Shown: in pieces, positions 11,819-51,198 of the stretch
Layout: every line of letters starts with the position of its first letter
Numbering within the stretch: the first letter of the stretch is position 1
Assembly: GCA_963695545.1 (NCBI GenBank)
Contig: OY968796.1
Location: forward strand, 2,880,001 to 2,944,000
DNA length: 64,000 nt
Direction: 5' to 3'
From: Terriglobia bacterium
Lineage (GTDB): Bacteria > Acidobacteriota > Terriglobia > Acidiferrales > UBA7541
The notes under the pieces: generated by a model
The model's database searches: none
What the model was told of the DNA's origin: nothing
Seen by the model: only the letters and a program-made list of their open reading frames with translations
Position numbers and translations under genes: made by a program

Positions 11819-12000
11819 GCATATATCGTCGTCGGCGAGCGCGCGCGCAGGGATAGCGCGCTAGGTGGTTTAGGCCGGTATCCGAGGGCCAGTAGTACCC
11901 TTACCCTCACGGTCCCGATGTCATTGCAAGATAAGCAGTTACGGATTTTGGGTTTGATATGCGCTCGGCCGGGACGCGGATGTTCGGAAGGGAATCCTGC

Positions 12001-19627: not shown

Positions 19628-19741
19628 CCATTCGAAATCCAGCCCCGTAGGGGCGGCACATTTTAGCCCAGGGCGGAAGCCCTGGGTACACAAGACGAAT
19701 TCGGGCAAGCCCCGTAGGGGCGACACATTCTTTTCGAATGG
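19628..19741. repeat. composite REP-like element: AGCCCCGTAGGGGCG x2 flanking CCCAGGGCGGAAGCCCTGGG, closed by 10-bp inverted repeats
   Basis: Direct repeats at 19641 and 19708; terminal CCATTCGAAA (19628) / TTTCGAATGG (19732). Confidence 0.8.
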
Positions 19742-19766: not shown

Positions 19767-20097
19767 TTCGAATACTATACTGATAAAATACTCTTGACGT
19801 GTGTTGACTCATATGCTATAAGATGGTATGAAGACCCCCGAATCGTTCGGTATCTCCCGCGTTCTTCGTCTTCCGGCCTCATCTCGCCCCGTCCCTCGCA
19901 CCACAACGTGCACTCAGCGCTCGAAAAACGCCCCAACAAATCGTTCATTTTCAATACCATCCGCACTCATCCAAAAGAGTGCGCATCTCATTGAAAAAAG
20001 GCGATATCAACTCACTTGTTTTCACACTCATCCGCACTCTTCTCCTGGAAGTCCTGTGTTCACATGCTTTTACGTTTTTTGTACCGGGGGTATATAT
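19767..20097 (+). repeat. AT-rich dispersed element with own promoter, copy 1 (candidate ncRNA/MITE-like)
   Basis: Shares identical 14-, 26- and 16-nt blocks with the reverse complement of 50653-50981. Confidence 0.8.
19794..19822 (+). promoter_or_regulatory. sigma70-type promoter TTGACG-N17-TATAAG with extended TG
   Basis: Consensus-like boxes at 17-nt spacing; same layout in the second element copy. Confidence 0.65.
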
Positions 20098-20241
20098 GCC
20101 CCGCCGCTTCCCACACCAAAAGTAACACTTGAACTTGTGGATCTAAACCGCGTGCGATCAATCAACTACGCAGTGCAAGGTGCCGCGGAAGCATGCCGCA
20201 CGATACTCGCCACTCTTCACTCCCCACAAACTACTCGCCCC

Positions 20242-21522
20242 TCACGCCGCACTCCCAATGCGCTCAATCCTCGCGCCCACGCCGCTGAGTTTCTCCACGA
20301 TCCGCTCGTACCCGCGATCGATATGGTAAACGCGATCGATAATCGTTTCGCCCTGCGCCACCAACCCCGCCAGCACCAGCGACGCGCTCGCGCGCAAGTC
20401 CGATGCGATCACCGTTGTGCCCGTCAGCGCCGCCGGACCGTGCACCACCGCTCGATTCGTCTCAATCGAGATGTTCGCGCCCATGCGCACCATCTCGCTC
20501 GCGTGCATGAACCGATTCTCAAAAATCGTCTCGGTAATCGCGGAATCTCCGTTGGCCTGCGTCATCAACGCCATGAATTGCGCCTGCATGTCCGTCGCGA
20601 ACCCGGGATACTCCTCGGTTTTCACGTCGGCCGCGATCAATTTCTTCGGCGCGCGCACGCGCAGCGCGCTCGCGCCTTCCGGGCGTATATCGACCCCGGT
20701 TTCCTTCAACTTCGCGATCACCGCGCCCAGGTGCCCCGGCTCGCAGCGCTCCAGCAGCAATTCTCCCCCGGTGATCGCGGCCGCCACCAGGAATGTACCC
20801 GCCTCGATGCGATCGGGAATGATCCGGTGCGTAGCCCCGCGCAATCGCGCAACACCGCGCACGCGCAGCGTCGAAGTTCCCTCGCCTTCAATCTCGGCGC
20901 CCATCTTGATCAGCAAGTCCGCCAAATCCGAAATCTCCGGCTCCCGCGCCGCGTTGTCAATCCGCGTCTCGCCGTCCGCCAGCGCCGCGGCCATCATCAG
21001 ATTCTCCGTGCCCGTCACCGTAATCTTTTCAAACACGATGTGCGCGCCGCGCAGCCGCCCGCTGCCCGGCGCGCGCGCTTCCACGTAACCGTGCTCGGTC
21101 GAAATCTGCGCGCCCATCAATTCGAGCGCCTTCAGATGCAAATCCACCGGACGCGCCCCGATCGCGCATCCGCCCGGCAACGAAACCCGCGCATGCCCCA
21201 GGCGCCCCACCAGCGGCCCCAGCGTCAGAATCGAAGCGCGCATGGTCTTCACCAGCTCATAAGGAGCCTCGGCGCCGGAAATCCGTTTGGCTTCGATCGT
21301 CATCTTCGTTGTCGGCAATTCCGGCGTCTCCACGCGCGCGTCCATATGGGCCAGCAACTTGCTCATGGTGATGATGTCACGCACATGTGGAACGTTCTCA
21401 AGTCGCACGGGTTCGTCGGTCAACAGCGCAGCGGCCATCGCCGGCAGCGCCGCGTTCTTCGCTCCGCTGATGGTCACGCGCCCTTCCAGGCGCCGTCCGC
21501 CTTCAATGCGAAACTTATCCAT
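20242..21522 (-). CDS. murA: UDP-N-acetylglucosamine 1-carboxyvinyltransferase
   Basis: MDKFRIEGG, SGAKNAALP, LPGGCAIGARPVDLH, SDLRASASL, DRGYE. Confidence 0.98.
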   Translation of the reverse strand: MDKFRIEGGRRLEGRVTISGAKNAALPAMAAALLTDEPVRLENVPHVRDIITMSKLLAHMDARVETPELPTTKMTIEAKRISGAEAPYELVKTMRASILTLGPLVGRLGHARVSLPGGCAIGARPVDLHLKALELMGAQISTEHGYVEARAPGSGRLRGAHIVFEKITVTGTENLMMAAALADGETRIDNAAREPEISDLADLLIKMGAEIEGEGTSTLRVRGVARLRGATHRIIPDRIEAGTFLVAAAITGGELLLERCEPGHLGAVIAKLKETGVDIRPEGASALRVRAPKKLIAADVKTEEYPGFATDMQAQFMALMTQANGDSAITETIFENRFMHASEMVRMGANISIETNRAVVHGPAALTGTTVIASDLRASASLVLAGLVAQGETIIDRVYHIDRGYERIVEKLSGVGARIERIGSAA

Positions 21523-21619
21523 TTGTCTCCGAGTCCTTACCGCGCTTCTCAGCTCTCTAAGCTTCCTCGCGCTCGATTCTCGACGTCCTCGCACGGCCGA
21601 TTTTCGGCGCAGCCGTTTC

Positions 21620-21660
21620 CCCGTGTGCCCCACACGTCGGTTTCACGTGTGGGGTCTTTG
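21620..21660 (+). repeat. REP-like palindrome type 1, second copy; contains the murQ stop codon
   Basis: CCCGTGTGCCCCACACGTCGGTTTCACGTGTGGGGTCTTTG. Confidence 0.8.
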
Positions 21661-22617
21661 ACGTTTCCCGACGGGCGCGTCCCATCGCCCGCCCAGCAAC
21701 GCGCGCCGCACATTACCGCCCGCCGCGTCCAATCGCCGACGCGCTTCCACCGCGCCCACGTCGGCTTTCAACATCACCAGCGCTACACGCAACCGGTCTG
21801 CGCGAAGCGCATTGATTTTACCGTGTCCCGATTGACGCATCGCCTGTGCCGCGCGCGCCACGCTTGCGCCGCTGGATTCCTCGAGAATCCGCAATCCGCG
21901 CCGCCGCAGCTTGCGATTCGTCAGCGCCACGCCGACCATCCAATTGTCGTACACGCGCCCGAGCCGCACCATCGCCGCGGTACTCAGCAGATTCAGCACC
22001 ATCTTCTGCGCCGTGCCGGCCTTGAGGCGCGTCGAGCCCGCAATCGCTTCCGGCCCCGTCTCGACGACAATCGCAATCTGCGCCGCGCGCCCGAGCGGCG
22101 TTCCGCGATTGCTCGCGATCCCAATCGTCATCGCCCCTCGCCGCCGCGCGAATTCGAGCGCGCCCAAAACGTATGGCGTCGTTCCGCTCGCCGCGATTCC
22201 GACCACCACGTCGCGCGCCGAAACCTTGCGCTTCGCCAAATCGCGCGCGCCCTGCGCCGCCGAATCCTCCGCGCCTTCGCTGGCCTCGGTCAGCGCGCGC
22301 CGTCCGCCCGCGAGCACGGCCTGAATCATTCCGCGTGGCGTGCCGAATGTCGGCGGGCACTCCGCCGCATCGAGCGCCGCCAGCCGTCCGCTCGTGCCCG
22401 CGCCGACATAAAAAAGTCTGCCGCCGCTTCCAACCGCTTTCGCGATCGCATCCACCGCGCGCGCAATCGCTGGCAGCGCGCGCCGCACTGCTGGCGCCAC
22501 ACCCGCGTCCTCGCGATTCATCGCGCGCACCACTTCGAGCGTGCTGCGCACATCGAGTCCGCGCGTGTGCGGGTTCCGCCGCTCCGTCGCTCTCGTCAAT
22601 TTACGCGCGCGTTTCAC
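21643..22617 (-). CDS. murQ: N-acetylmuramic acid 6-phosphate etherase
   Basis: TERRNP, GAGTSGRL, DAAECPPTFG, GSTRLKAGTAQKMVLN. Confidence 0.97.
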   Translation of the reverse strand: MKRARKLTRATERRNPHTRGLDVRSTLEVVRAMNREDAGVAPAVRRALPAIARAVDAIAKAVGSGGRLFYVGAGTSGRLAALDAAECPPTFGTPRGMIQAVLAGGRRALTEASEGAEDSAAQGARDLAKRKVSARDVVVGIAASGTTPYVLGALEFARRRGAMTIGIASNRGTPLGRAAQIAIVVETGPEAIAGSTRLKAGTAQKMVLNLLSTAAMVRLGRVYDNWMVGVALTNRKLRRRGLRILEESSGASVARAAQAMRQSGHGKINALRADRLRVALVMLKADVGAVEARRRLDAAGGNVRRALLGGRWDAPVGKRQRPHT

Positions 22618-22788
22618 AGCCGCGATTATAACCGCGCCGCCGTGGACGCCGTGGCAACGTTATTGCCGGGTGTTCCTCGGGACAGTGGCATCTTGCGCGT
22701 CACGCCCGGAAATTTGTGGTTGGCATTTCTAAACGCCCATGTAGAATACGGCCTCGTCTTCATTTGCACCGGAGCGCCACAGGGAACC

Positions 22789-23691
22789 GTGAAACGCGGC
22801 ATCCATCAAAGCAACGCAATTCGCGCGCGCCGGTCGCGCCTGATTTTGATTGTCCTCGCATGCCTGGCTCTTCTCGCGTCGTTTTCGCCGCCGGCGTTTG
22901 CCCGCTCCACGCGCGTCGCACGCTCCACACGCGCCGCCCGCGCTGCGCGCATGGCGCGCGCTGCCAGATACGCCAGGGCCACTCGCTCGACCAGAACTCC
23001 GCGCCCCGTCGTTCGCGACAACTTTCGCACAACTTTTCCCGAACCAGCCGCGCGTGTCCATCGCGCGCTGTGGACGCCGCTGTTCCGTCCGTCGCACGAA
23101 TCCATGGTGATTCAGAACGAAGAAATCGATCGGCTCGGTCTGCCGCGCATCCAGAATCAGGAGCAGCTCGACGAACTGGTCGAGAGCGGAGACTTGGTTC
23201 CCATCGTTCCGAATCAAACTCTGCGCATTGATCCGCGCCTTGATCCCGATCGCCGCTATTGCCGTCCGTGGACGCTCGATTTCGTGAACGATCTAAGCGA
23301 AGCTTATTTCCGCGAGTTCCACGACCAGATTCAAATCAATTCCGCCGTTCGCACCGTCGAAGTGCAGGAGCAGCTGCGCCGCTACAATTCAAATGCCGCG
23401 CCCGAGTCGGGCGATCTGGCCTCCTCTCATTTGGCCGGCATCACCGTGGATATCCAGCGTCTCGGCATGACCATGCCCGAGATCAAGTGGGTCGAACAAT
23501 ATATGTTGCCGCTCCACGATGCGGGCTTGATCGAGCCCGAAGAAGAGCGCCATCAGCGCTGCTTCCACGTGATGGTCTCGAATCGTTATGAAGACTGGCG
23601 CGCACCGCAAGCGCGCGCCGGCACCGGCTCCGATGCGGCGCCCGATGACACCACACACGCTTCGCCGGACCCATCGGACGCGCCGCAGTAA
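22789..23691 (+). CDS. exported DUF5715-like protein, possible M15/Hedgehog-fold Zn peptidase
   Basis: signal peptide ending PAFA; SAVRT..Q..L...N.NAA, SSHLAGITVDI, EEE...CFHVMV. Confidence 0.75.
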   Translation: MKRGIHQSNAIRARRSRLILIVLACLALLASFSPPAFARSTRVARSTRAARAARMARAARYARATRSTRTPRPVVRDNFRTTFPEPAARVHRALWTPLFRPSHESMVIQNEEIDRLGLPRIQNQEQLDELVESGDLVPIVPNQTLRIDPRLDPDRRYCRPWTLDFVNDLSEAYFREFHDQIQINSAVRTVEVQEQLRRYNSNAAPESGDLASSHLAGITVDIQRLGMTMPEIKWVEQYMLPLHDAGLIEPEEERHQRCFHVMVSNRYEDWRAPQARAGTGSDAAPDDTTHASPDPSDAPQ

Positions 23692-23731
23692 TTTTCTGAG
23701 GTTTGTTTCACCGGAACGCGGCGGAAAAAAA

Positions 23732-26632
23732 TCAGGGCGTTCCGAGTCCCAGGCCCGCGAGAATCGCGTCGTGCACTGCAGGCCGAGCCTGCACAATTTT
23801 CTCGTTCTCGCGCGTCGGGTAAACGCGATTCGTCAGCAGCACCACGAACAAATCGCGCGATGGGTCGATCCAGATTGAAGTGCCGGTGAATCCAAGATGT
23901 CCGAAAGTTCCCGGCGCAAAGTAATGCCCGCTCGCGGAATCCGCCGTCGGCAGCATCCAGCCGAGCGTGCGCGTCGCCGGCGCCAGCGGCGCGGGCGAAG
24001 TGAATTGCGCGATGGTCGCGCGCTGAAGCATTCGCCGGTGCGCATAAATGCCGCCGTTCAGCAGCATCTGGCAGAACGCGGCAAGGTCCGGCGCGCTCGC
24101 GAACATCCCCGCGTGCCCCGCCACGCCGCCCATCGCGAACGCATTCTCGTCGTGAACTTCGCCGTGAATTAAACGCTTCCTCCACGTCGCGTCCATTTCG
24201 GTCGGCGCGATCTGCAACATCAGCGCGGCCGGCGGGCGATACATCGCGTGCGTCATACCGAGCGGATCGAAAATTCGTTCGCGCGCCAGTTGATCGAGCG
24301 GCCGCCCCGTTACTCGCTGCACAATTTCGCCGAGCAAAATAAATCCAAGATCCGAATAAACCGATTGCGTTCCCGGTTCGTACGCCAGCGGTACGGCGCA
24401 AATCGCTGCGATCATTTCCTGCGGCGTCTTCACCGTCTTGTAAAAATCTTCGTGCGCCGGCAATCCCGAAGTGTGCGTGAGCAAATATCGCAGCGTGACT
24501 TTCGCTCTCCACTCCGGCTGCGGCCCCGTCGCCCATTCCGGAATGTAGCGCGCCACCGGCGCATCGAGATCGAGTTGCCCCGCTTCCGTCAGCATCGCCA
24601 CAAGCGTCGTCGTCACCACGGATTTCGTGAGCGACGCCGCGTCGTACATCGTATCCGCCGTAACGGCAGGCGATGTCGCGTCGTAAGTCTGCCGCCCAAA
24701 CGCGTGCACCGCGAGTTGTCCGTTGTATCCGACGGCGACGACTCCTCCCGGGAACGCGCGATCGGTCACGGCCGCGTCAAGCGCGGCGTATGCTGGCGCG
24801 AGTTTTGTTTCCATCGCGGCATCGGCCGGAACAAGTTTCATCGGATTCGCGGGCACATCGATCCCCGCGCCCAGCGCGGCCCCCCCGGGAATCGTCACCG
24901 GCAATCGTCCGCCTATTGCAACCTGACCAAACATCGCGCGCCCCACGGCGCGCTGTGCCACGTCGGAAGTGCTGAATGCGGCGATCCAGGTTTTTGCATT
25001 TGGAAATCGCGACTGAAGATATGGACTGCCGAAGCACGCCACAATCGATGTTTTACCCGACGCGAGCACCGCATTCACCAGCGCCGCTTCGTCGTCCGGC
25101 AATCCGACCGAGCCTTTGCGGTCCGCCACTTGAACCAGCACGGCCGCGATGGCCACGTCATAGCTCGAAGCTGGCGGCAACTTTATCTGCGCCGCGCTCG
25201 AAAATCGTGTGTCGGCGCGCAGCACTTGCAGCGAATCGACGCGCGGCCGAATCTCCTGCTCGAAATCTCCGCCCGGGTTGGGATTCGGATCGGCCGAAAC
25301 AATCACCAGCAACACGCGCAGCGGCCGCGTGGAATCGAGCGGCAGCGCGTGCTGCGAATCGGTCAGCAGCGTCACGCCGCGATCGGCAATATCCTGCGCC
25401 GTGCGCTCGAATTCCGGCTTGCCGAGCGTTTTCGCGATGTCGTCGAGGTTCACAAATCGCTGCGTCTCGAGATTCAAGTGAGCCTTGGCGACCAGAATGT
25501 GCGTCACCGCATCGTCGATGCGAGAGATTGGGATGCGCTTGCTCACGACCGCTTCGCGCAGCGCGGCAAACGCCGCATCGGGGGTTGGTGGAATCAGTAG
25601 CACATCAGCACCGGCAAGCACGGCGCGCACCGCGGCTTCTCCGGGAGGATAGATTGCCGTGACGCCGCCCATGTCCATCGCGTCAGTGACGACGAGGCCG
25701 CGAAATCCCATGGTCTTGCGCAATAGATCGGTGGTAATCAACGGCGAAAGCGACGCCGGAACTTTCGGATCGGGATCAAGCGCGAGCACAGCCAAGTGAC
25801 CCGTCATGATTGTGCTCGCGCCCGCGGCGATCGCCGCGCGAAACGGCGCGAGGTCCACGCGATCGAGCTGCGCGCGATCCTCGGTGACTGTGGGCAGCGC
25901 AAGATGCGAATCGGTGCTGGTATCGCCGTGTCCGGGGAAATGTTTCGCGGAAGCCAGCGCGCCGTTTTCCTCCACGCCGCGCACAAACGCGGCCACGAAT
26001 TCGGAAACGCGCTCCGGATCTTCGCCGAACGAACGCGTGTTGATGATGGGATTAGCGGGATTGCTATTCACGTCCGCGTCCGGCGCGAGCACCCAATTCA
26101 CTCCGACGGCGCGCGCTTCAATCGCGGTGATTCGGCCCATCGCATAGGCGTCGGCGGGGCGGCCCGTCGCGGCCACGGCCATGGCGTGCGGAAACGAAGT
26201 GCCTTCATCGAGACGCATGGCGGTGCCGCGCTCGAAATCCGCCGCGACCAGGAGCGGAATTGCCGCGCGCCGTTGCAAGTCGTTCGCCAGAATCGCTGTG
26301 GGATACGCCTGGCTGAAAGTCAGGCCCGTCGGAGTCACCTGCGTTTTCAGAATGAAGCCGCCGACGTGCAGTTGCTCGACATCGCGCACCAGCTCGCGAT
26401 GCTCGGGACTCTCCGCCGGGGTGAATCCGCCGTAGTAGTAGACCACCAGTAGCTGCCCGATCTTCTGATCGAGCGTCATTTTTGCCAAAGTGTCGCGCAC
26501 CCAGCGCTCGCTCGCGGCGCTATCGGTTGAGCGAGCAGATGCGGCTTGTTTCGGGCGCGTGGGTTTGGCGGTGCCCGCGGTGCGTGCCATCAGAAGAATG
26601 GAGAGCAGAAGCAGCCAGACATTCGTTTTCAC
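23732..26632 (-). CDS. GH3 beta-N-acetylglucosaminidase (NagZ-type) fused to a C-terminal beta-lactamase-family serine hydrolase (AmiE-like)
   Basis: KHFPGHGDTSTDSH NagZ motif, TDAMDM; ASLTK (SxxK), YSD, GHAG, GHLGFTG. Confidence 0.93.
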   Translation of the reverse strand: MKTNVWLLLLSILLMARTAGTAKPTRPKQAASARSTDSAASERWVRDTLAKMTLDQKIGQLLVVYYYGGFTPAESPEHRELVRDVEQLHVGGFILKTQVTPTGLTFSQAYPTAILANDLQRRAAIPLLVAADFERGTAMRLDEGTSFPHAMAVAATGRPADAYAMGRITAIEARAVGVNWVLAPDADVNSNPANPIINTRSFGEDPERVSEFVAAFVRGVEENGALASAKHFPGHGDTSTDSHLALPTVTEDRAQLDRVDLAPFRAAIAAGASTIMTGHLAVLALDPDPKVPASLSPLITTDLLRKTMGFRGLVVTDAMDMGGVTAIYPPGEAAVRAVLAGADVLLIPPTPDAAFAALREAVVSKRIPISRIDDAVTHILVAKAHLNLETQRFVNLDDIAKTLGKPEFERTAQDIADRGVTLLTDSQHALPLDSTRPLRVLLVIVSADPNPNPGGDFEQEIRPRVDSLQVLRADTRFSSAAQIKLPPASSYDVAIAAVLVQVADRKGSVGLPDDEAALVNAVLASGKTSIVACFGSPYLQSRFPNAKTWIAAFSTSDVAQRAVGRAMFGQVAIGGRLPVTIPGGAALGAGIDVPANPMKLVPADAAMETKLAPAYAALDAAVTDRAFPGGVVAVGYNGQLAVHAFGRQTYDATSPAVTADTMYDAASLTKSVVTTTLVAMLTEAGQLDLDAPVARYIPEWATGPQPEWRAKVTLRYLLTHTSGLPAHEDFYKTVKTPQEMIAAICAVPLAYEPGTQSVYSDLGFILLGEIVQRVTGRPLDQLARERIFDPLGMTHAMYRPPAALMLQIAPTEMDATWRKRLIHGEVHDENAFAMGGVAGHAGMFASAPDLAAFCQMLLNGGIYAHRRMLQRATIAQFTSPAPLAPATRTLGWMLPTADSASGHYFAPGTFGHLGFTGTSIWIDPSRDLFVVLLTNRVYPTRENEKIVQARPAVHDAILAGLGLGTP

Positions 26633-26775
26633 GTCCGCGGCCGGTCGCGCGAAGTTGACGCGTGCATCGTGTGGCAGTATATAGCACGGCGCTCGCAGCG
26701 GACAATGAGGCCGCCGCACGTTGCGGCACAAATTCGCCAACATGCGCCGCGCTGCGCTTCGAGACTGAAAATAAA

Positions 26776-28065
26776 ATGACGCTCGGGCGAAAATCGAGAT
26801 CGCGGATCCACCTCGTCCGGCGGCGCGCGCGGCCGCTCACGCCACATTTTCTGTTCGCCATGTGGTGCGCGCTTGCCGCGCTCGCTGCTCCAAAGCTACT
26901 CGCGCAGAGCGCGCCGTCGGCCGGCGCAAGCGATGGCGGAACGCTCGCCGGAATCGACGTCCTCGAAGCCGAGAATTTCCGACCACTCGCCGGCAAGCGC
27001 ATCGGCCTCGTCACAAACCAGACCGGCGTCGATCGCGAAGGACGCGGCACAATCGCGCTGCTGGCGCATGCACCCGGAGTGAAACTCGTCGCGCTGTTCA
27101 GTCCCGAGCACGGCATCGCGGGGACCGCCGACGCTACAGTGGCTTCGTCCACCGATATCGCGACTGGCGTGCCGGTTTACAGTTTGTATGGCGAAAACAA
27201 GCGTCCGACCGACGCGATGCTGAATGGAGTGGATGCGCTGGTGTTCGATCTTCAGGATGCAGGCGTGCGCTTCTACACCTACATCACGACGATGGGCTAC
27301 GCGATGGAAGCGGCCGCGCAACATCACATCGCGTTCTACGTTTTGGATCGTCCCGATCCGCTCGGCGGCGAGCGCGTTGAGGGACCAATGCTCGATCCCG
27401 ATCGAATTGCCTACACCGCGTATTTCCCGATGCCCGTGATTCCCGGCATGACGCTCGGCGAAATGGCGCGCATGTTCAACGCCGAAAATCATATCGGCTG
27501 CGATTTGCGCGTGATCGAAATGCGCAACTGGCGGCGCAGCGAGTGGTTCGATCAAACGGGTCTCCCGTGGATTAGCCCATCGCCAAATCTGCGTTCATTC
27601 CAAGCCGAGATAGTTTACCCCGGCCTCGAAATCTTGCAGAACGCCGGAGTCTCGGTGGGCCGCGGCACGCCCGCGCCATTCGAGCAGTTCGGCGCGCCAT
27701 GGATTCAGAGTCAGCAACTCGTCGACGCGCTCAATCGACGCAATATTCCCGGCGCGCGTTTCGCGCCCGCGCAATTCACACCGGCGACGGACCTCTATCA
27801 AGGCCAGATTTGCGAAGGCGCGCGCATGGAGGTGACCGATCGCGCGGCGTTTGACCCCATGCCGGCGGGCGTTGAAATCGCGGCGGCGCTCCGGCAACTG
27901 TATCCCGCGAATTTCGATCCGCAGAAAATGATGTTCTTGCTCGGCAGCGAGACTACGGTTGATCAACTCGAGCACGGCGACGCGCCAAAGATGATTGTGG
28001 CCCGGTGGAAGGAAAGTCTGGCGCCTTTCATGGCCATGCGAGCAAAATACCTGCTGTATCCGTAG
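26776..28065 (+). CDS. exo-beta-N-acetylmuramidase NamZ family (DUF1343)
   Basis: GLVTNQTG, FSPEHG, DLQDAGVRFYTY, DRPDP, SPNL, SVGRGT. Confidence 0.92.
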   Translation: MTLGRKSRSRIHLVRRRARPLTPHFLFAMWCALAALAAPKLLAQSAPSAGASDGGTLAGIDVLEAENFRPLAGKRIGLVTNQTGVDREGRGTIALLAHAPGVKLVALFSPEHGIAGTADATVASSTDIATGVPVYSLYGENKRPTDAMLNGVDALVFDLQDAGVRFYTYITTMGYAMEAAAQHHIAFYVLDRPDPLGGERVEGPMLDPDRIAYTAYFPMPVIPGMTLGEMARMFNAENHIGCDLRVIEMRNWRRSEWFDQTGLPWISPSPNLRSFQAEIVYPGLEILQNAGVSVGRGTPAPFEQFGAPWIQSQQLVDALNRRNIPGARFAPAQFTPATDLYQGQICEGARMEVTDRAAFDPMPAGVEIAAALRQLYPANFDPQKMMFLLGSETTVDQLEHGDAPKMIVARWKESLAPFMAMRAKYLLYP

Positions 28066-28114
28066 GTTCGGCCGAGACACCGCGCAATCTGGGCGGCGAT
28101 CCGCAAGGTGGCGA

Positions 28115-28798
28115 ATGGCACGTGAAAAAATCTGGTTGTCGTGGAGCAGCGGCAAGGACAGCGCCTGGAGTCTGCACACACTGCGCCAGGGAGATGAGTA
28201 CGAAGTTGTGGCGCTGCTGACGACCGTCAACCAGGAATTCAATCGCGTCGCGATGCACGCCGTGCGTGAAGCGGTGCTCGAAGCGCAAGCCGCCGCGCTC
28301 GGATTGCCTCTGGTGAAAGTTCCGATTCCGTCGCCGTGCCCCAACGAAGTCTATGAGTCCGCCATGGCGCAGGCCATGGAGCGGGCGCGCGCGGAAGGAA
28401 TTTCTCGAATCGCGTTTGGCGATTTGTTTCTTGAAGATATCCGCAAATATCGCGAAGAAAAACTGGCGTCGGTGAACATGCAGCCGGTGTTTCCGATCTG
28501 GGGAATTGAAACGCGATCGCTGGCGCACGCCATGGTGCGCTCAGGCCTGCGCGCAATTGTCACCTGCGTGAATCCGAAACTGCTCGATCCGCGATTCGCA
28601 GGGCGTATTTTCGACGACCAGCTTCTGGCGGAGTTGCCGGAGTCGGTGGATCCGTGCGCGGAACGCGGTGAATTTCACACCTGCGTCTACGCTGGGCCGA
28701 TGTTCATAAAGCCGCTGCCCGTTCACGCGGGCGAAATCGTCATGCGCGATGGGTTTGTGTTCGCCGATGCGCTGCTATCGGATGCGGCGCAGGGCTGA
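28115..28798 (+). CDS. PP-loop ATP-binding protein (diphthamide-synthase/DUF71-like)
   Basis: SWSSGKDS, FGDLFL, DPCAERGEFHT. Confidence 0.9.
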   Translation: MAREKIWLSWSSGKDSAWSLHTLRQGDEYEVVALLTTVNQEFNRVAMHAVREAVLEAQAAALGLPLVKVPIPSPCPNEVYESAMAQAMERARAEGISRIAFGDLFLEDIRKYREEKLASVNMQPVFPIWGIETRSLAHAMVRSGLRAIVTCVNPKLLDPRFAGRIFDDQLLAELPESVDPCAERGEFHTCVYAGPMFIKPLPVHAGEIVMRDGFVFADALLSDAAQG

Positions 28799-28812
28799 TT
28801 TTTCCGACCGAT

Positions 28813-29748
28813 ATGGCGAACATGCGCATCGTTTCTCTGATCCCTTCGGCCACGGAAATATTATTCGCGCTCGGACTGGGCGATGAAATTTGCGGCGTCA
28901 GCCACGAGTGCGATTTTCCGGCCGAAGCGCGCACCAAGCGAGTGGTGGTGCATCCGCGCATTCCGGAAGGTTTGGCCGCCGGCGAAATTGAGCGGCGAGT
29001 GCGCGATTACGTCTCGCGTGGAGAGAGTTTGTATGTCGTGGACGCCGCGGCGCTTGCCGAACTCGATCCGGATCTGATCATCACGCAGGATTTGTGCCAC
29101 GTGTGCGCGGCGACGCCGGACGATCTGGCCGCTGCTCTCAATGGCCTAGCGCGCATGCCGCGCATTCTAACGCTCGATCCGCAATCGCTCGACGACGTCT
29201 ATGACAATATTCGGCTCGTCGCCGAGACCGCCGGTCGCGCATCCGAGGCTGCGCGAGTAATCGGCGCGCTGCAGAGTCGCGTCGCGGCCGTCGGGCGCGC
29301 TGTCGCTGGCCGCACGCGCCCGCGAGTGTTGTGTCTTGAGTGGCTCGACCCGCCGTATCCCGGCGGGCACTGGGTTCCTGAGATGGTCGAGCACGCTGGA
29401 GGAATTGACGTGTTGGGCAGCGTGCGCGTGCCGTCTGCGCCCGTCGCTTGGGACGCGGTGCTCGCGACGCAGCCGGACATCGCAGTGATCATGCCGTGCG
29501 GCTACGGCGCCGAAAAAGCTGCGTCGGAATATGCCGCGGCGCCATTTCCGGCGGGATGGACCGATCTGCCGGCGGTTCGCGCGGGTCGCGTGTTCTGCGT
29601 GGATGGCTCAAGTTATTATTCGCGTTCGGGGCCGCGACTCGTGGACGGAATCGAAATCCTTGCCGGGTTACTGCATCCCGAATGCGCGGACGTAATCGCT
29701 CCGCCGCCGGCCGGCGCGATCGCGCCGCTAGCGCGAGCGGTGCGTTAG
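28813..29748 (+). CDS. cobalamin/iron-siderophore binding protein (BtuF-like)
   Basis: RIVSLIPSATEILFALG, PDLIITQDLC, EWLDPP, SRSGPRLVDG. Confidence 0.88.
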   Translation: MANMRIVSLIPSATEILFALGLGDEICGVSHECDFPAEARTKRVVVHPRIPEGLAAGEIERRVRDYVSRGESLYVVDAAALAELDPDLIITQDLCHVCAATPDDLAAALNGLARMPRILTLDPQSLDDVYDNIRLVAETAGRASEAARVIGALQSRVAAVGRAVAGRTRPRVLCLEWLDPPYPGGHWVPEMVEHAGGIDVLGSVRVPSAPVAWDAVLATQPDIAVIMPCGYGAEKAASEYAAAPFPAGWTDLPAVRAGRVFCVDGSSYYSRSGPRLVDGIEILAGLLHPECADVIAPPPAGAIAPLARAVR

Positions 29749-29779
29749 CGCCCACGCGATCACGTGTGCAAATCGCAAA

Positions 29780-31276
29780 TCAAGCCTCGCGTTGCTCGCG
29801 AGTGGGAGTGCGCGCGCCGAAGATCAGGCTCGCGAGCGCCCCGACAGCAAATGTGACGAGCGCGCCGGCCAGCACGTACCATGTCCAATCGAGCCATTTC
29901 ATTTTGTGAATCAGCACCAGCGCCGCGAGGCCTGCAAACATTCCAAGTATCGCGCCGGCTTGATTCGCGCGCCGATCGAGCGTGCCAAGCAGAAAGAGTC
30001 CGAGCAAACTTCCGTAAGTGATCGAAGCGATCGTGAGGCCCGCTTCGAGCACAGGTCCCCAATGCGCGGTTCCCAGCGCGAGCACGGCCGCGCCCCAGGC
30101 GACCGTCATCCATCGCGAACGACGAAGCAATCGCGCTTGATCCGCGCCGGCGACATCGCCGCCAAACCCGCGCGCGCCGGCCCAGATCGCGCGAAAATCG
30201 AGCACGCTGGAAGCCGCAAGGGAATTAAGCGATCCGCTCAGATTGGACATGGCTACAGCCAAAATCGATGCGATCACCAAGCCGCGCAGCCCCACCGGCA
30301 GCGCGGTGATGATGAACTGCGGAAAAACACTGTCGTAACTTTGCCCTGCGACGATTGCGGGAGCGCCATCGCGCACAAACAGCATCACGCCTATCAGCAG
30401 GAACAAAGCGAACTGCGCGAAAATAATCACACCGCTCGCGAGCAACGCCCATTTGCTTTCGCGCTCGGATTTCGCGGAGAGCAGACGCTGCACGATCGTT
30501 TGATCGGTTCCGTGACTCGCCATCGTCAAGAACCCGCCGCCGATCACGCCGGACCAGAACGTGTAAGTCTTCGCAGGATTTCCGAGAGCGCGCCAACTGA
30601 ACGAAAAATCGAACACACGCAATTTGTTTCCGGCAACGGCGGAAACGCGCACGACTTCGCTCCATCCGCCCGGAATGCCGTGCAAGAGCAAAGCAAACGC
30701 CAAAAGTGAGCCCGCGAGATAGAGGCATGCCTGCACCACGTCGGTCCAGATCACGGCTTTCATTCCGCCCTCAAACGTGTAGAGCAGTGTTAGCGCCACA
30801 ACCACCGCGGCCGATGCGCGCGGACCGGTGCCGAGCGCGGCGCTCACCACCAGGCCGACCGCGGCCACGCGCACGCCTTCGGCGAGCACGCGCGTAAGGA
30901 GAAAAGTGGCGGCCGCGGCACGTTTCGCTTCTTGACCGAACCGCCGCTCGATAAATTGATACGCAGTGAAGAATTCACCGCGAAAATAGTGGGGCAGAAA
31001 CAGCAGCACGATCGCGACGCGGCCCACCAGATAGCCCATCACCACTTGCAGAAATCCCAGGTTACCGGCGTAGGCGAGAGCCGGCGTGCCGATGATTGTC
31101 AGCGTGGAGGTTTCCGTGGCGACGATGGAAAATGCCAGCGCCCACCACGGCGCGGTGCGCCCGCCGAGCAGATAATCGCGCAGCGAGTGCTGATTACGCC
31201 GAAACGCGATTCCGAGCAGCGTAACGCCCGCCAAATAGGCGATAATGATGCCCAGGTCGATCGCGCGAAGTTGCAT
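29780..31276 (-). CDS. sodium:solute symporter
   Basis: SIVATETS, GGMKAVIWTDVVQ, GTDQTIVQRLL; ~13 TM. Confidence 0.95.
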   Translation of the reverse strand: MQLRAIDLGIIIAYLAGVTLLGIAFRRNQHSLRDYLLGGRTAPWWALAFSIVATETSTLTIIGTPALAYAGNLGFLQVVMGYLVGRVAIVLLFLPHYFRGEFFTAYQFIERRFGQEAKRAAAATFLLTRVLAEGVRVAAVGLVVSAALGTGPRASAAVVVALTLLYTFEGGMKAVIWTDVVQACLYLAGSLLAFALLLHGIPGGWSEVVRVSAVAGNKLRVFDFSFSWRALGNPAKTYTFWSGVIGGGFLTMASHGTDQTIVQRLLSAKSERESKWALLASGVIIFAQFALFLLIGVMLFVRDGAPAIVAGQSYDSVFPQFIITALPVGLRGLVIASILAVAMSNLSGSLNSLAASSVLDFRAIWAGARGFGGDVAGADQARLLRRSRWMTVAWGAAVLALGTAHWGPVLEAGLTIASITYGSLLGLFLLGTLDRRANQAGAILGMFAGLAALVLIHKMKWLDWTWYVLAGALVTFAVGALASLIFGARTPTREQREA

Positions 31277-48249: not shown

Positions 48250-49576
48250 CTAGACGCGGACCTCGGAAAACGATTTGTCGAGCAGTCGAATGGCTTCGTC
48301 GACGTCGGCCTTGGCGATATTGAGCATGGGCGCGAGGCGAATCACGTTGCCGTAGAGGCCGCCCTTGCCGATCAAGAGGCCGTTGTCGCGCGCGCGCTCG
48401 AGCAGCTGCGTTTGTGGCTTCGGGCGCGGGCTCTTTGGTTTGGCGGTCTTTTACGAGTTCGATGCCTTGCATCAGCCCCATTCCGCGCACGTCGCCGATC
48501 ACGCGCATGCTTTTCCTTCAGCTCGTCGAGTTTTCCGCGGAAATAGTCGCCGACGACATCGGCGTTATCGAGCAGATTTTCTTCTTCGATCACTTCGATG
48601 GTGGCGCGCGCCGCAACCGACGTGACCGGATTGCCGCCGAAGGTGGAAATCGTCGAGGCCCTGGAAGGCGTCAGCGATTTCGGGCGTCGTGATGGTTGCG
48701 CCGATCGGCGTGCCGTTGGCCATGCCTTTGGCGCAAGTGATGATGTCCGGCGTGACTTCCCAGTGCTCGATGCCGAACCAGTTTTTCCGGTGCGGCCGAA
48801 GCCGGTTTGCACTTCGTCGGAGATGAACAGGCCGCCGTATTTTTTCACGATCTGAAAAACAATCTTGAAATATTCCGGCGGAGGAGTGATGAATCCGCCG
48901 ACGCCCTGAATGGGCTCGGCGATGAAGGCGGCGATCTGGCCGCTGGTGCCGGTTTGGATCAGATTTTCAACGTCATTGGCGCAAGCTACGCCGCAATCGG
49001 GATATTTCATGCCCAGCGGGCAGCGATAGCAATAAGGATTGATGGCGTGCGAGACGCCGACGCTGATGATTCCGGTCCGCGGCGATAGGGCGCGACGGCG
49101 GTCATCGATTTCGTGAGCGACGATCCGCCGGAATACGCGTGGCGCAGACCGACGACATCGTAGCGGCCGGTGGCCATGCGCGCGAGTGAGAATGGCCATT
49201 TCGTTGGCTTCGCTGCCGGAATTGGTGAAGAAAGTTTTTTCGCAGGCGGCCGGGCGTGATCTGCGCCATTTTTTCGGCCAGATCGACGATGGCCTCGTTG
49301 GGATAGAGCGTGGAGAGATGCTGCAGGCGATCGACCTGCGCTTTGATTTTCCCGGTGACCTTGGGATTGGTGTGTCCGACGGAGATGGTGAGGATGCCGC
49401 CGAAGAAATCGAGATATTTCTTGCCCTCGACGTCCCAAACGTATTGCATCGAGGCGCGGTCGGCTACGAGCGGCTGCTTGTAATAATTCGACGACCGCGG
49501 GCCAGACGTATTCTTTGTATTTGGCGACGACTTCTTCGCTACGTGTGGCTGACCGTCTTGGTCTTCAGTCGCTCAT
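48250..49576 (-). pseudogene. class III aminotransferase (beta-alanine aminotransferase-like), broken by multiple frameshifts
   Basis: Fragments in different frames: YVWDVEGKKYLDFFGGI, EPIQGVGG/DEVQTGFGRTG, STFGGNPV, GDVRGMGLMQGIEL; may be an assembly artefact. Confidence 0.8.
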
Positions 49577-49602
49577 GAAGCTCCCCTGAAATCGTTTTGC
49601 AA

Positions 49603-50508
49603 CTAATCTGCTGCTTGCGCCGAGCCGGCCGCGAGCGTGCGCGTGATTTCGCCGTAAGATTCCGGACGGCGATCGCGGAAGAATTGCCAGACGCGGCGCA
49701 CTTCTTCGATTTCGTCGAGATTCGAGTTCGGCGGCGAGCAGTTCGTCTTTGTTGCGGCTGGCTTGCGCCACGATTTTTCCGCGCGGACTGCAGAAATAGC
49801 TCTTGCCGTAAAATTCGCCGATCTTCCACGGTGCTTCGATGCCCACGCGATTGATGGCCGCGACAAAATATCTGATTGGCCACGGCATGAGCCGGCTGCT
49901 CGAGTTCCCACAAATATTCGGAAAGCCCGGCGACGGTGGCCGATGGGTTATAGACGATTTCCGCGCCGTTCAGGCCGAGGCATGCGCGCGCCTTCGGGGA
50001 AGTGACGGTCGTAACAGATATAGACGCCGACTTTGGCGAAACGCGTTTGGAAAACGGGATAGCCGGCGTTGCCGGGCGTGAAATAAAATTTCTCCCAAAA
50101 ACCGGGATGGCAGTGCGGGATGTGGTGCTTGCGATATTTTCCGAGATATTTTCCGTCGACGTCAATCACCGCGGCGGTGTTGTAATAGACGCCGGGCATT
50201 TCGACTTCGTAGATCGGGACGACCAGGACCATTTCGTGTTTCTTCGCGAGTTTTTGCATGCGCGCGATGGTTGGGCCGTCGGGAACGGGCTCGGTCAAGT
50301 CGTACCAGCGCGTTTGCTGCTCGGCGCAGAAATAAGGGCCGTAAAAGAGCTCCTGCAAACCGAGGACTTGCACTTTCTTCTTGGCCGCTTGCGCGATGAG
50401 ATCCTCGTGCTTCGCGATCATCCGCTTCTTGATTTCGTCGAGCGAATATTTTTCCGGCGACCACTCGCACGACGCCTGGATCAAGCCGCAGCGGACCATT
50501 CGAGACAT
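49603..50508 (-). pseudogene. nitrilase-family beta-ureidopropionase/N-carbamoyl amidohydrolase, frameshifted in its 3' half
   Basis: GGAGGT SD; LQELF, YRKHHIP, ICYDRHFPE, then frame jumps (GLNGAEIVYNPS; INRVGIE; WQFFRDRRP). Confidence 0.82.
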
Positions 50509-50652
50509 CGCGCACCTCCGGTGCTGTAAGGGCAGTTTACCGCTGGCGGGCGCGTGGGAACAAGGCGCGCGCCGCGCTTGTGAGAACTCTATGATTGCAG
50601 GGGACTTCGGAATTTCGGGGCGGCGGGCGGCTAACGACAGACGGAAACGTGT

Positions 50653-50981
50653 ATATATACCCCCGGTATGTTTTTGCGAACTTGCTGAAAACGCGGCGGT
50701 TGCAGGGAAAGAGTGCGGATGAGTGTGAAAACAAATGGGGTTAAAACGTCTATTTTTCAGCATGTTGCGCACTCTTTTGTAATTGACTGAAAACAAATGG
50801 GGTTGTGTAGGGGCTTTGGTCGTCACAGGAACGAAATCGAGACGGCGAGGGCGCAGGTCGAGGGAGCGCGCGGGACGCAAATCCAGAGTGGGCTGCGTGG
50901 ACAGTTCGAAATGGGGAAGCGCGAACATTCAAAATGATAACATTTGTGCACGCTAGTGTCAACTACTATATGAGTATTCGA
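50653..50981 (-). repeat. AT-rich dispersed element with own promoter, copy 2
   Basis: Reverse complement shares TTCGAATACT, CAAAAGAGTGCGCA, TTGTTTTCACACTCATCCGCACTCTT, TACCGGGGGTATATAT with copy 1. Confidence 0.8.
50934..50962 (-). promoter_or_regulatory. sigma70-type promoter TTGACA-N17-TATCAT with extended TG
   Basis: Perfect -35, 17-nt spacer, TGnTATCAT. Confidence 0.7.
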
Positions 50982-51198
50982 AACAAATCTCGCACGCACG
51001 GAGAGAGCGGATAAGGGGCGCCAGGCCGCGCCCTTCCCCGGGGCATCTGGAGGATAGGCTAATCGCGGCGCGACCCGGCGGCCGAGATTCCTAAACAAAA
51101 TATAAAAATCCGACCGGCGATTTTGAGGCTAAGGTACAGCGCGCGCCGAGATGTCTTTCGGTTGCGCGGCCCGGGTCGTATATAATCTCGCCGCGCTC

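Follow-up and report, generated by a model that had tools for sequence, protein, structure and literature searches.

What is the AT-rich, promoter-bearing element that occurs at two places in this stretch of DNA? The stretch (the window; 64,000 nucleotides) belongs to genome G000, a 4.16-Mb single contig from Ca. Acidiferrales, as judged by the names of homologues. An initial annotation, made from the window alone, considered a self-promoted structured RNA, a non-autonomous element, or a protein-binding array mobilised in trans. That annotation gave correct coordinates for the three identical blocks, for the two TTCGAATACT motifs and the two promoters, and for the ATG that follows each -10 by 5 nt (Table 1). 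It also described the element as present twice, which was a large underestimate: the cassette family has 112 copies in the genome. And it overlooked the even spacing of the copies, the selection for an open leader frame, a linked zinc-finger gene, and a switch in strand bias. The family is real and large, its anatomy and compositional footprint are directly observed, and from these we infer a mechanism: the cassettes are likely to be start sites of an undescribed DNA-exchange process rather than RNA genes.

Table 1. Features of the two cassette copies in the window (positions are those of the window)
Feature	Positions	Strand	Details
Copy 1, upstream TTCGAATA motif	19767..19776	+	near-invariant across the cassette family
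Copy 1, predicted sigma70-type promoter	19794..19822	+	-35 TTGACG 19794-19799; extended -10 TATAAG 19817-19822
Copy 1, leader frame	19828..20097	+	ATG at predicted +1; open across the whole element
Copy 1, class I repeat core	19935..20075	+	TTGTTTTCA-type units: direct, inverted, direct, direct
Copy 1, terminal G-tract motif	20082..20097	+	
Zone 3' of copy 1 with the sign switch of fourfold-site GC skew	20100..30000	none	
Copy 2, upstream TTCGAATA motif	50972..50981	-	
Copy 2, predicted sigma70-type promoter	50934..50962	-	-35 TTGACA 50957-50962; extended -10 TATCAT 50934-50939
Copy 2, leader frame	50653..50928	-	from ATG; open through the element
Copy 2, class I repeat core	50675..50805	-	
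Copy 2, terminal G-tract motif	50653..50668	-	
DNA present at copy 2, absent from the orthologous site in relatives	50580..51145 (approximate)	-	

Copy 1 is flanked by pnp and a convergent murA-type gene, and copy 2 by a BrkB/YihY gene and a nitrilase gene. No transposase is adjacent, as the annotation had said, and the element has no covariance-model match in Rfam at the gathering score. The sole Rfam match is an Acido-Lenti-1 repeat at 19641-19686, which flanks copy 1. Acido-Lenti-1 or REP-like repeats occupy 19641-19735, immediately 5' of copy 1, and similar ones are often found 5' of other copies. A suspected degenerate half-unit at 11915-11943 had no match by the promoter, 3'-end, or core profile and is not supported. 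The core of copy 1 also contains AAGAGTGCG / CGCACTCTT. Its leader frame runs on antisense to murA and is not protein-like according to a codon model; the leader of copy 2 is in the same frame as the nitrilase gene downstream. The core of copy 2 had a depth of 225-423 in four metagenome runs from one study, versus about 5-9 in the flanks.

The nitrilase gene (49539-50499) appears to be split. The break is probably an assembly error, because one base at 49983 is missing from metagenome contigs in three of four runs. The mutS gene of G000 likewise appears in two pieces, and the assembly has some single-base indels.

A profile of the core had 101 matches in G000, or 91 non-overlapping copies (45 on the + strand and 46 on the - strand), and no matches in the reversed genome. 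The recurrence is far in excess of chance, and the initial reading as a dispersed family is supported. A promoter profile identified 21 further copies (E < 0.01), again with no matches in the reversed genome; most of these have a second class of repeat (class II). The 112 copies are evenly spaced, with a mean gap of 37 kb and a coefficient of variation (CV) of 0.55. None of 100,000 random placements was as regular (mean CV, 0.99), and neither was any of 20,000 placements on intergenic sites. Each cassette is 200-650 bp long and has the same layout: TTCGAATA, TTGACA-N17/18-extended -10, usually a start codon, a variable C-rich stretch, three or four phased repeats (about 20 bp each), and an A-tract together with a G-tract. 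An ATG or GTG lies 5 nt after the -10 in 83 of the 91 copies (86 if 6 nt is allowed). The sequence of the repeats differs between classes and genera, and the layout is kept. Many copies are within 150 nt of a gene, and the next gene is on the same strand for 82 of the 112 copies and on the opposite strand for the other 30.

The copies have diverged from each other: among 61 cores compared, the mean identity is 61%, the maximum is 83%, and no two are near-identical as recent copies would be. Over stretches of 120-180 nt, copy-to-copy identity reaches 80-87%. The family therefore falls within the putative mobile promoters (at least 80% identity over at least 50 nt upstream of unrelated genes), which is an operational class only. 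TTCGAA is near-invariant upstream of the cassette promoters. The same hexamer is strongly under-represented in G000 (564 occurrences versus about 1,860 expected from 5-mers), and it is a possible site for restriction, methylation, or a regulator.

The frame that begins at the start codon is kept open. It contains just 9 stops in 8,409 codons, as compared to 127 and 187 in the other sense frames and 268-328 in the antisense frames, and it is open through the element in 80 of the 86 copies that have a start codon. This replicates in other genomes: the frame is open in 41 of 44 copies in G003 and in 37 of 42 class II copies with a start codon. However, a conserved small protein was rejected as the explanation, since the frame shifts from block to block and, at -0.21 per codon (+0.17 for genes), the coding score is below zero. 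Because copies differ in the frame in which the conserved blocks are read and the codon score is that of noncoding sequence, we conclude that selection is for an open frame and not for a protein. The annotation's argument for conservation at the nucleic-acid level is supported. Its observation that the reading frame shifts between blocks is correct for the blocks themselves, but the frame from the ATG is open in both window copies, as in most of the family. Among 48 copies with a same-strand gene within 300 nt, the stop of the leader meets the start of that gene in 19, where permutation gives a mean of 4.8, and the leader is fused in frame to the next gene in 8 more cases (genes were called with a simple custom caller). 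This coupling suggests that the leader is really translated.

The copies also mark a switch in strand bias. On the strand of the element, GC skew at fourfold sites is close to -0.36 between -6 and 0 kb, changes sign at about +4 kb, has its maximum of +0.20 near +10 kb, and has faded by about 25 kb. The profile is tied to the orientation of the element: it is the same for the 56 copies that are co-oriented with their replichore as for the 56 that are head-on, for the 82 copies with a same-strand downstream gene as for the 30 with an opposite-strand gene, and for both element classes. The profile is also identical for genes on either strand, which rules out an artefact of gene orientation; similarly, replication-transcription conflict was rejected because co-oriented and head-on copies share one profile. 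Of 91 upward flips, 62 are at -2 to +10 kb from a core-defined copy. Twenty-five flips are well outside that range, and 14 of them have a copy that was found later, lies 0-6 kb upstream, and points at them, which is an out-of-sample check of the link between copies and flips. For 4 of the remaining 11, G003 has a copy at a site shortly upstream of the flip. Where gaps exceed 50 kb, the skew is back to about 0 in mid-gap, so its reach is finite. It does not scale with gap length, and the gap-scaled, N-shaped skew of regularly firing origins was not seen. In the window, the flip associated with copy 1 was called near 25500, with fourfold-site skew of -0.45 upstream and +0.08 downstream. Copy 2 is a young copy and has no skew (-0.07 and -0.04).

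The local signature is an excess of C over G on strands that point towards the switch (log odds of 0.83-1.19), in all 8 fourfold boxes and all neighbour contexts. On the same C/G measure, the contrast between leading and lagging strands from oriC gives -0.06 to 0.07, and with the elements modelled, the oriC replichore term is -0.002 +/- 0.006. The oriC-ter axis is still followed by T/A (+0.036), by KOPS-like octamers (194/292), and by context-free transitions; the local transition term appears only where C has a 5' pyrimidine. Two-fold sites are not flat (G/A log odds of -0.46 upstream). The skewed zone shows no increase in fourfold divergence from G003 (0.39-0.40 versus 0.42-0.44 far away). 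C/G differences from G003 are 0.162 in that zone; by a hand calculation, this should be about 0.16 under fixation bias and about 0.21 under one-sided extra mutation. Thus, fixation bias is favoured over extra mutation, in a test that involves one genome pair, saturated transitions, and about 40% site turnover. At fourfold sites, C/G transversions are the commonest difference between G000 and G003 everywhere (0.14-0.17), about twice as common as C/T. The skew profile is fit (rms of 0.027) by a model in which a start lies downstream of the cassette at a roughly exponential distance (mean of about 10 kb) and is followed by equal two-sided tracts of about 12 kb. A pattern search did not find a dif-like site near the terminus, and a crude motif scan for a dedicated deaminase returned three proteins of about 150 residues.

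Gain and loss of sites is supported, as the sites turn over among relatives. G003 also has a cassette at the site of copy 1, which is empty in four further congeners, and the site of copy 2 is empty in 4/4 informative congeners. In three congeners (G005, G001, and G002; loci L137, L138, and L139), the pnp-murA site has a small gene, which we take to be an XRE-type regulator, in place of the cassette of G000 and G003. Copy 2 is absent from all four relatives and lacks skew, which suggests a time lag between arrival and skew. We found no metagenome contigs with an empty site 2. An ordinary non-autonomous transposon, as the annotation had entertained, is not supported: core identity is at most 83%, and the one alignment of a filled and an empty site (site 2) had no evident target duplication or terminal repeat. 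For terminal repeats, the flanks of 91 copies among those listed were inspected, and old insertions could have lost such marks. We also took 50 of the 55 promoter matches in G003 for comparison with G000, and mapped 47 of them: 27 copies are shared, 18 are absent, and 2 are in the opposite orientation. The flanks of shared copies are about 72-89% identical, yet among 26 G003 copies, just 3 have their orthologue as best match (one shared pair was left out). The upstream flank failed to map at 17 of the 50 loci, versus 6 of 50 for the downstream flank, and called genes cover 0.46 of the DNA upstream of copies versus 0.86 downstream. Together, the rarity of orthologous best matches, the unmapped upstream flanks, and the low upstream gene cover imply that the sites are rewritten and gather foreign DNA.

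A zinc-finger gene lies downstream of 4 of the 112 copies. It encodes 139-170 residues, in which a C-C-C-H finger is accompanied by a helical hairpin and a loose tail (model pLDDT of 76). The protein has no match in Pfam, PHROG, or NCBIfam, including any known Rep family, and its finger has a weak, non-significant similarity to that of MCM10 (E = 0.11). A profile built from it matches 3,745 clusters at 50% identity. Matches are present in 25 of 41 related genomes and in 6 of 150 other genomes across the phylum, all 6 in one further family of the class. In several other genera, among the loci listed, the same layout with different repeat letters precedes a zinc-finger gene, although not at all of the loci. 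The zinc-finger protein would bind the repeats, and the initial idea of a protein-binding array that acts in trans gains support. In G022, the zinc-finger gene precedes the repeats instead of following them (L048; G022:C13 351300-351800), and skew in that genome is weak.

G000 also carries a phage head cluster near the predicted terminus (G000:C1:3384000-3419000; L006 and L007), with terminase, capsid, lysin, and a replication-initiator-like gene. It looks domesticated, and an insertion just upstream of the capsid gene is presumably IS-like. The cluster is conserved in 14-16 of the 41 genomes and does not track skew.

The same skew geometry was seen at copies in G015, G018, and G001, and in G122, which is from another order. 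We quantified the sawtooth as the standard deviation (SD) of skew across 4-kb bins, using 120-320 kb per relative; the sampling SD was about 0.06 where computed, and the related genomes are kin rather than independent samples. The SD was 0.335 in G122, 0.28 in G021 (no cluster and no zinc finger), 0.245 in G018 (no cluster match), 0.24 in G015, 0.20 in G027 (no cluster), 0.19 in G023, 0.16 in G001, 0.14 in G016 (which has the cluster), and 0.09 in G022 (which has copies and no cluster), as compared to 0.20-0.29 in G000 and 0.08 in G044, from another class. In G021, which has no zinc-finger gene or head-cluster match anywhere in its genome, a sharp flip from -0.5 to +0.5 at about 178000 of contig C5 (L335) has no recognised element. 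We recognised no copies of the cassette family at the flips of G021, G023, G027, or G016. Because flips occur without a recognisable copy in some relatives, the cassette may be one lineage's version of a wider system. Neither the head cluster nor the zinc finger is strictly required for skew. Near skew flips in G023, which has no cassette family, is a different repeated AT-rich motif that starts with TTCTAATCGC (G023:C1 619400, 631800, and 656800; L099-L101); it is possibly a second cis element for the same process.

With the anatomy, copy number, spacing, open frame, oriented skew profile, base signature, and site turnover observed, our preferred explanation, which we put somewhat short of an even chance, is that the cassettes start two-sided recombination tracts and that the skew arises from C:C mismatches that escape repair. 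Firing of the promoter and translation of the leader would carry RNA polymerase across the repeats. These would be bound by a protein, possibly the product of the linked zinc-finger gene in lineages that have kept it. A machine would then move a random distance downstream (approximately exponential, with a mean of about 10 kb) and make a DNA end. Both ends would pair with homologous DNA from other strains over about 12 kb, and the invaders would be the strands whose 3' ends point at the break. C:C mismatches would escape MutS and G:G mismatches would not, so C would drift upwards on the invading strands. In E. coli, by the available text of the source, C:C correction is very poor, and G:G is the mismatch corrected with the highest efficiency (PMC3167615), a ranking that may not be the host's. 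Escape of C:C and correction of G:G give the observed sign of the skew if the strands that point at the switch are the invading strands of the break. A MutS domain was found in 39 of the 41 genomes. The copies would be evenly spaced because coverage of the whole genome is selected for or because neighbours exclude one another. We count the fit of symmetric two-sided tracts and the finite reach of the skew in favour of recombination, along with the orientation-tied profile, the out-of-sample check, the suggested time lag, the C-over-G signature that differs from that of oriC, the unraised divergence, and the rewriting of sites. Against it, the prediction of flat two-fold sites, as first stated, failed; the zinc-finger gene is at just 4 of the 112 copies; the sawtooth of G021 is strong (SD of 0.28), with no zinc-finger match, no head-cluster match, and no recognisable copy at its flip; and G022 has copies yet weak skew (SD of 0.09). 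We identified no nuclease, helicase, or loader for it. More broadly, one class of soil Acidobacteria may have dedicated loading cassettes, transcribed and translated, at intervals of 30-80 kb along the chromosome, from which DNA exchange (or local synthesis of DNA) would begin at a random distance downstream, with a zinc-finger reader and a strand-specific C-over-G conversion drive; this is a tentative picture, a little less probable than its opposite.

The transition term, confined to C that follows a 5' pyrimidine, is explained by damage to exposed single-stranded DNA no less well than by recombination. Because of this, and because the two-fold prediction failed, non-standard local synthesis stays a close rival. 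Each cassette would be a local replication origin, with short bidirectional forks run by machinery other than the oriC replisome, and the exposed template strands would give the skew; the repeats would be iteron-like, with transcriptional activation and a zinc-finger initiator. The polarity of the skew is indeed origin-like (G-rich strands point away), C is lost after pyrimidines on the outward strand, as would suit exposure of a single strand, and the combination of phased repeats, a strong promoter, and an adjacent small gene is reminiscent of iteron origins. DnaA-like boxes (at most one mismatch) lie upstream of 46 of 112 copies, with a control that was not AT-matched, and the faint resemblance to the MCM10 finger points the same way. 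Phage-derived run-off replication is known in Bartonella, as far as the available text describes it (PMC2697382). However, all 27 near-complete genomes have dnaA, and the oriC-ter axis keeps its KOPS-like bias and its own context-free transition signature, with no C/G term. Also, the switch lies about 4 kb from the cassette, the skew does not scale with gap length, and C/G exchange is not raised. A phage replication-initiator-like gene is present in just 11 of 41 genomes, and not in G018. Local origins are, in our judgement, rather unlikely. It is more doubtful still that the cassettes are packaging starts for the head cluster, which would act as a gene transfer agent with the zinc-finger protein as terminase adaptor. 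The capsid gene is single-copy and 55-92% identical in 14 of 41 genomes, a 91-residue frame within the one cluster of G000 has the same tail as the zinc-finger protein, and transferred fragments would recombine too. But G018, which is 100% complete, has copies, 14 zinc-finger matches, and a skew SD of 0.245, and no terminase or capsid match. The sawtooth is also present without the cluster in G021 and G027, so packaging is weakened by skew that is kept in relatives without the cluster. Conversely, G016 has the cluster and has no zinc-finger match and no recognised copy in 200 kb. Copies without a cluster match, in both G018 and G022, show that the two do not consistently co-occur, although recent loss of the cluster or use of other phages is possible. 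The 91-residue frame was not found in 80 kb spanning the G015 cluster, the cassette has no match in viral contigs, and there is no second peak at a multiple of a headful length.

The cassettes might also be mobile promoters that give their neighbours strong transcription and coupled translation; the skew would then be a side effect of transcription, of repair, or of selection for strands that are rich in C and Rho-friendly. The bias towards same-strand downstream genes, the meeting of leader stops with gene starts and the in-frame fusions, the turnover of sites, and the operational definition of putative mobile promoters, as given in the available text of PMC3575422, are all consistent with this. 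It does not explain spacing that is more even than any of 20,000 intergenic placements, skew that is strongest upstream of the promoter and independent of gene direction, conservation of the repeats and G-tract across genera, or frames that are open even when they face a convergent gene, as for window copy 1; we think it improbable. A family of structured noncoding RNAs, as first proposed, is by now largely refuted and very improbable. The element has its own promoter, and individual copies fold better than expected (z of -2.6 on the sense strand, 40 cores), but the antisense strand is nearly as foldable (-2.0). RNAalifold on 61 cores gave no consensus fold and no covariation of pairs, and the pairs with the highest mutual information are mostly not base pairs. 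The proposed TGAAAA/TTTTCA stem is broken in 76 and compensated in 1 of 366 cells. Neither a repeat sequence that varies by class and genus under a constant layout nor an open frame is what a structured RNA would require. All remaining explanations together have a small share of the probability.

GC skew in bacteria is usually taken as the mark of replication from one origin. In G000 it flips about a hundred times, mostly at a definable cassette, without a C/G component from oriC, and a similar sawtooth is found in genomes from two orders of abundant soil bacteria. Whether the cassettes are programmed starts of recombination or many non-standard origins, this would be a chromosome-wide DNA process that we did not find in our literature search; a full-text search (subscription papers and supplements lay outside it) returned no published description of the cassette or of the sawtooth. 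If the recombination reading is true, bacteria have programmed, evenly spaced recombination hotspots whose conversion drive outweighs the skew from whole-genome replication. It would also be a natural test of escape from mismatch repair as a driver of bacterial base composition. The cis element and its candidate binding protein are open to cloning and testing.

Among known systems, MITEs and Correia, ERIC, and REPIN elements are dispersed, noncoding, promoter-bearing, and gained and lost between species. The cassettes are likewise dispersed and promoter-bearing, with sites gained and lost, but no terminal inverted repeats, target duplications, or near-identical copies were seen among them, and their spacing is regular rather than random or clustered. 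Chi sites, with RecBCD or AddAB, and eukaryotic hotspots are oriented sites that act in cis on where recombination tracts tend to start or stop, and biased gene conversion at eukaryotic hotspots leaves a compositional mark. The cassettes too are oriented cis sites with a compositional mark, and they would be comparable if recombination does begin at them. Chi is a short motif that acts on an already loaded nuclease; in contrast, the cassette is a composite of 200-650 bp that is predicted to be transcribed, and with 56 of 112 copies co-oriented, it has no replichore skew. Our literature search did not find a strand-specific C-over-G conversion bias around dispersed bacterial sites. The origins of iteron plasmids and lambdoid phages have phased repeats, a strong promoter, DnaA-like boxes, and a small gene alongside. 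The cassettes share these features, with repeats of about 20 bp, and also the origin-like polarity of skew, but they have about 110 chromosomal copies, a linked protein that matches no Rep family, a switch about 4 kb away, and a finite reach, and oriC is still in use. The Bartonella gene transfer agent with run-off replication has one amplified region, according to the available text (PMC2697382). G000 and some relatives similarly have a conserved single-copy head cluster with a replication-initiator-like gene; unlike that system as described there, the cassettes are at many dispersed sites, and relatives in which no cluster was found can still have both cassette and skew. Putative mobile promoters (Nijveen, Matus-Garcia, and van Passel, 2012) are, in the available text, mostly pairs at about 92% identity (PMC3575422). 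As with the cassettes, similar promoter-bearing sequence precedes unrelated genes. Compared with that account, the cassettes are distinguished by their number (112 diverged copies), their even spacing, their phased repeats and open leader frame, the linked gene, and a strand-bias footprint of 50 kb.
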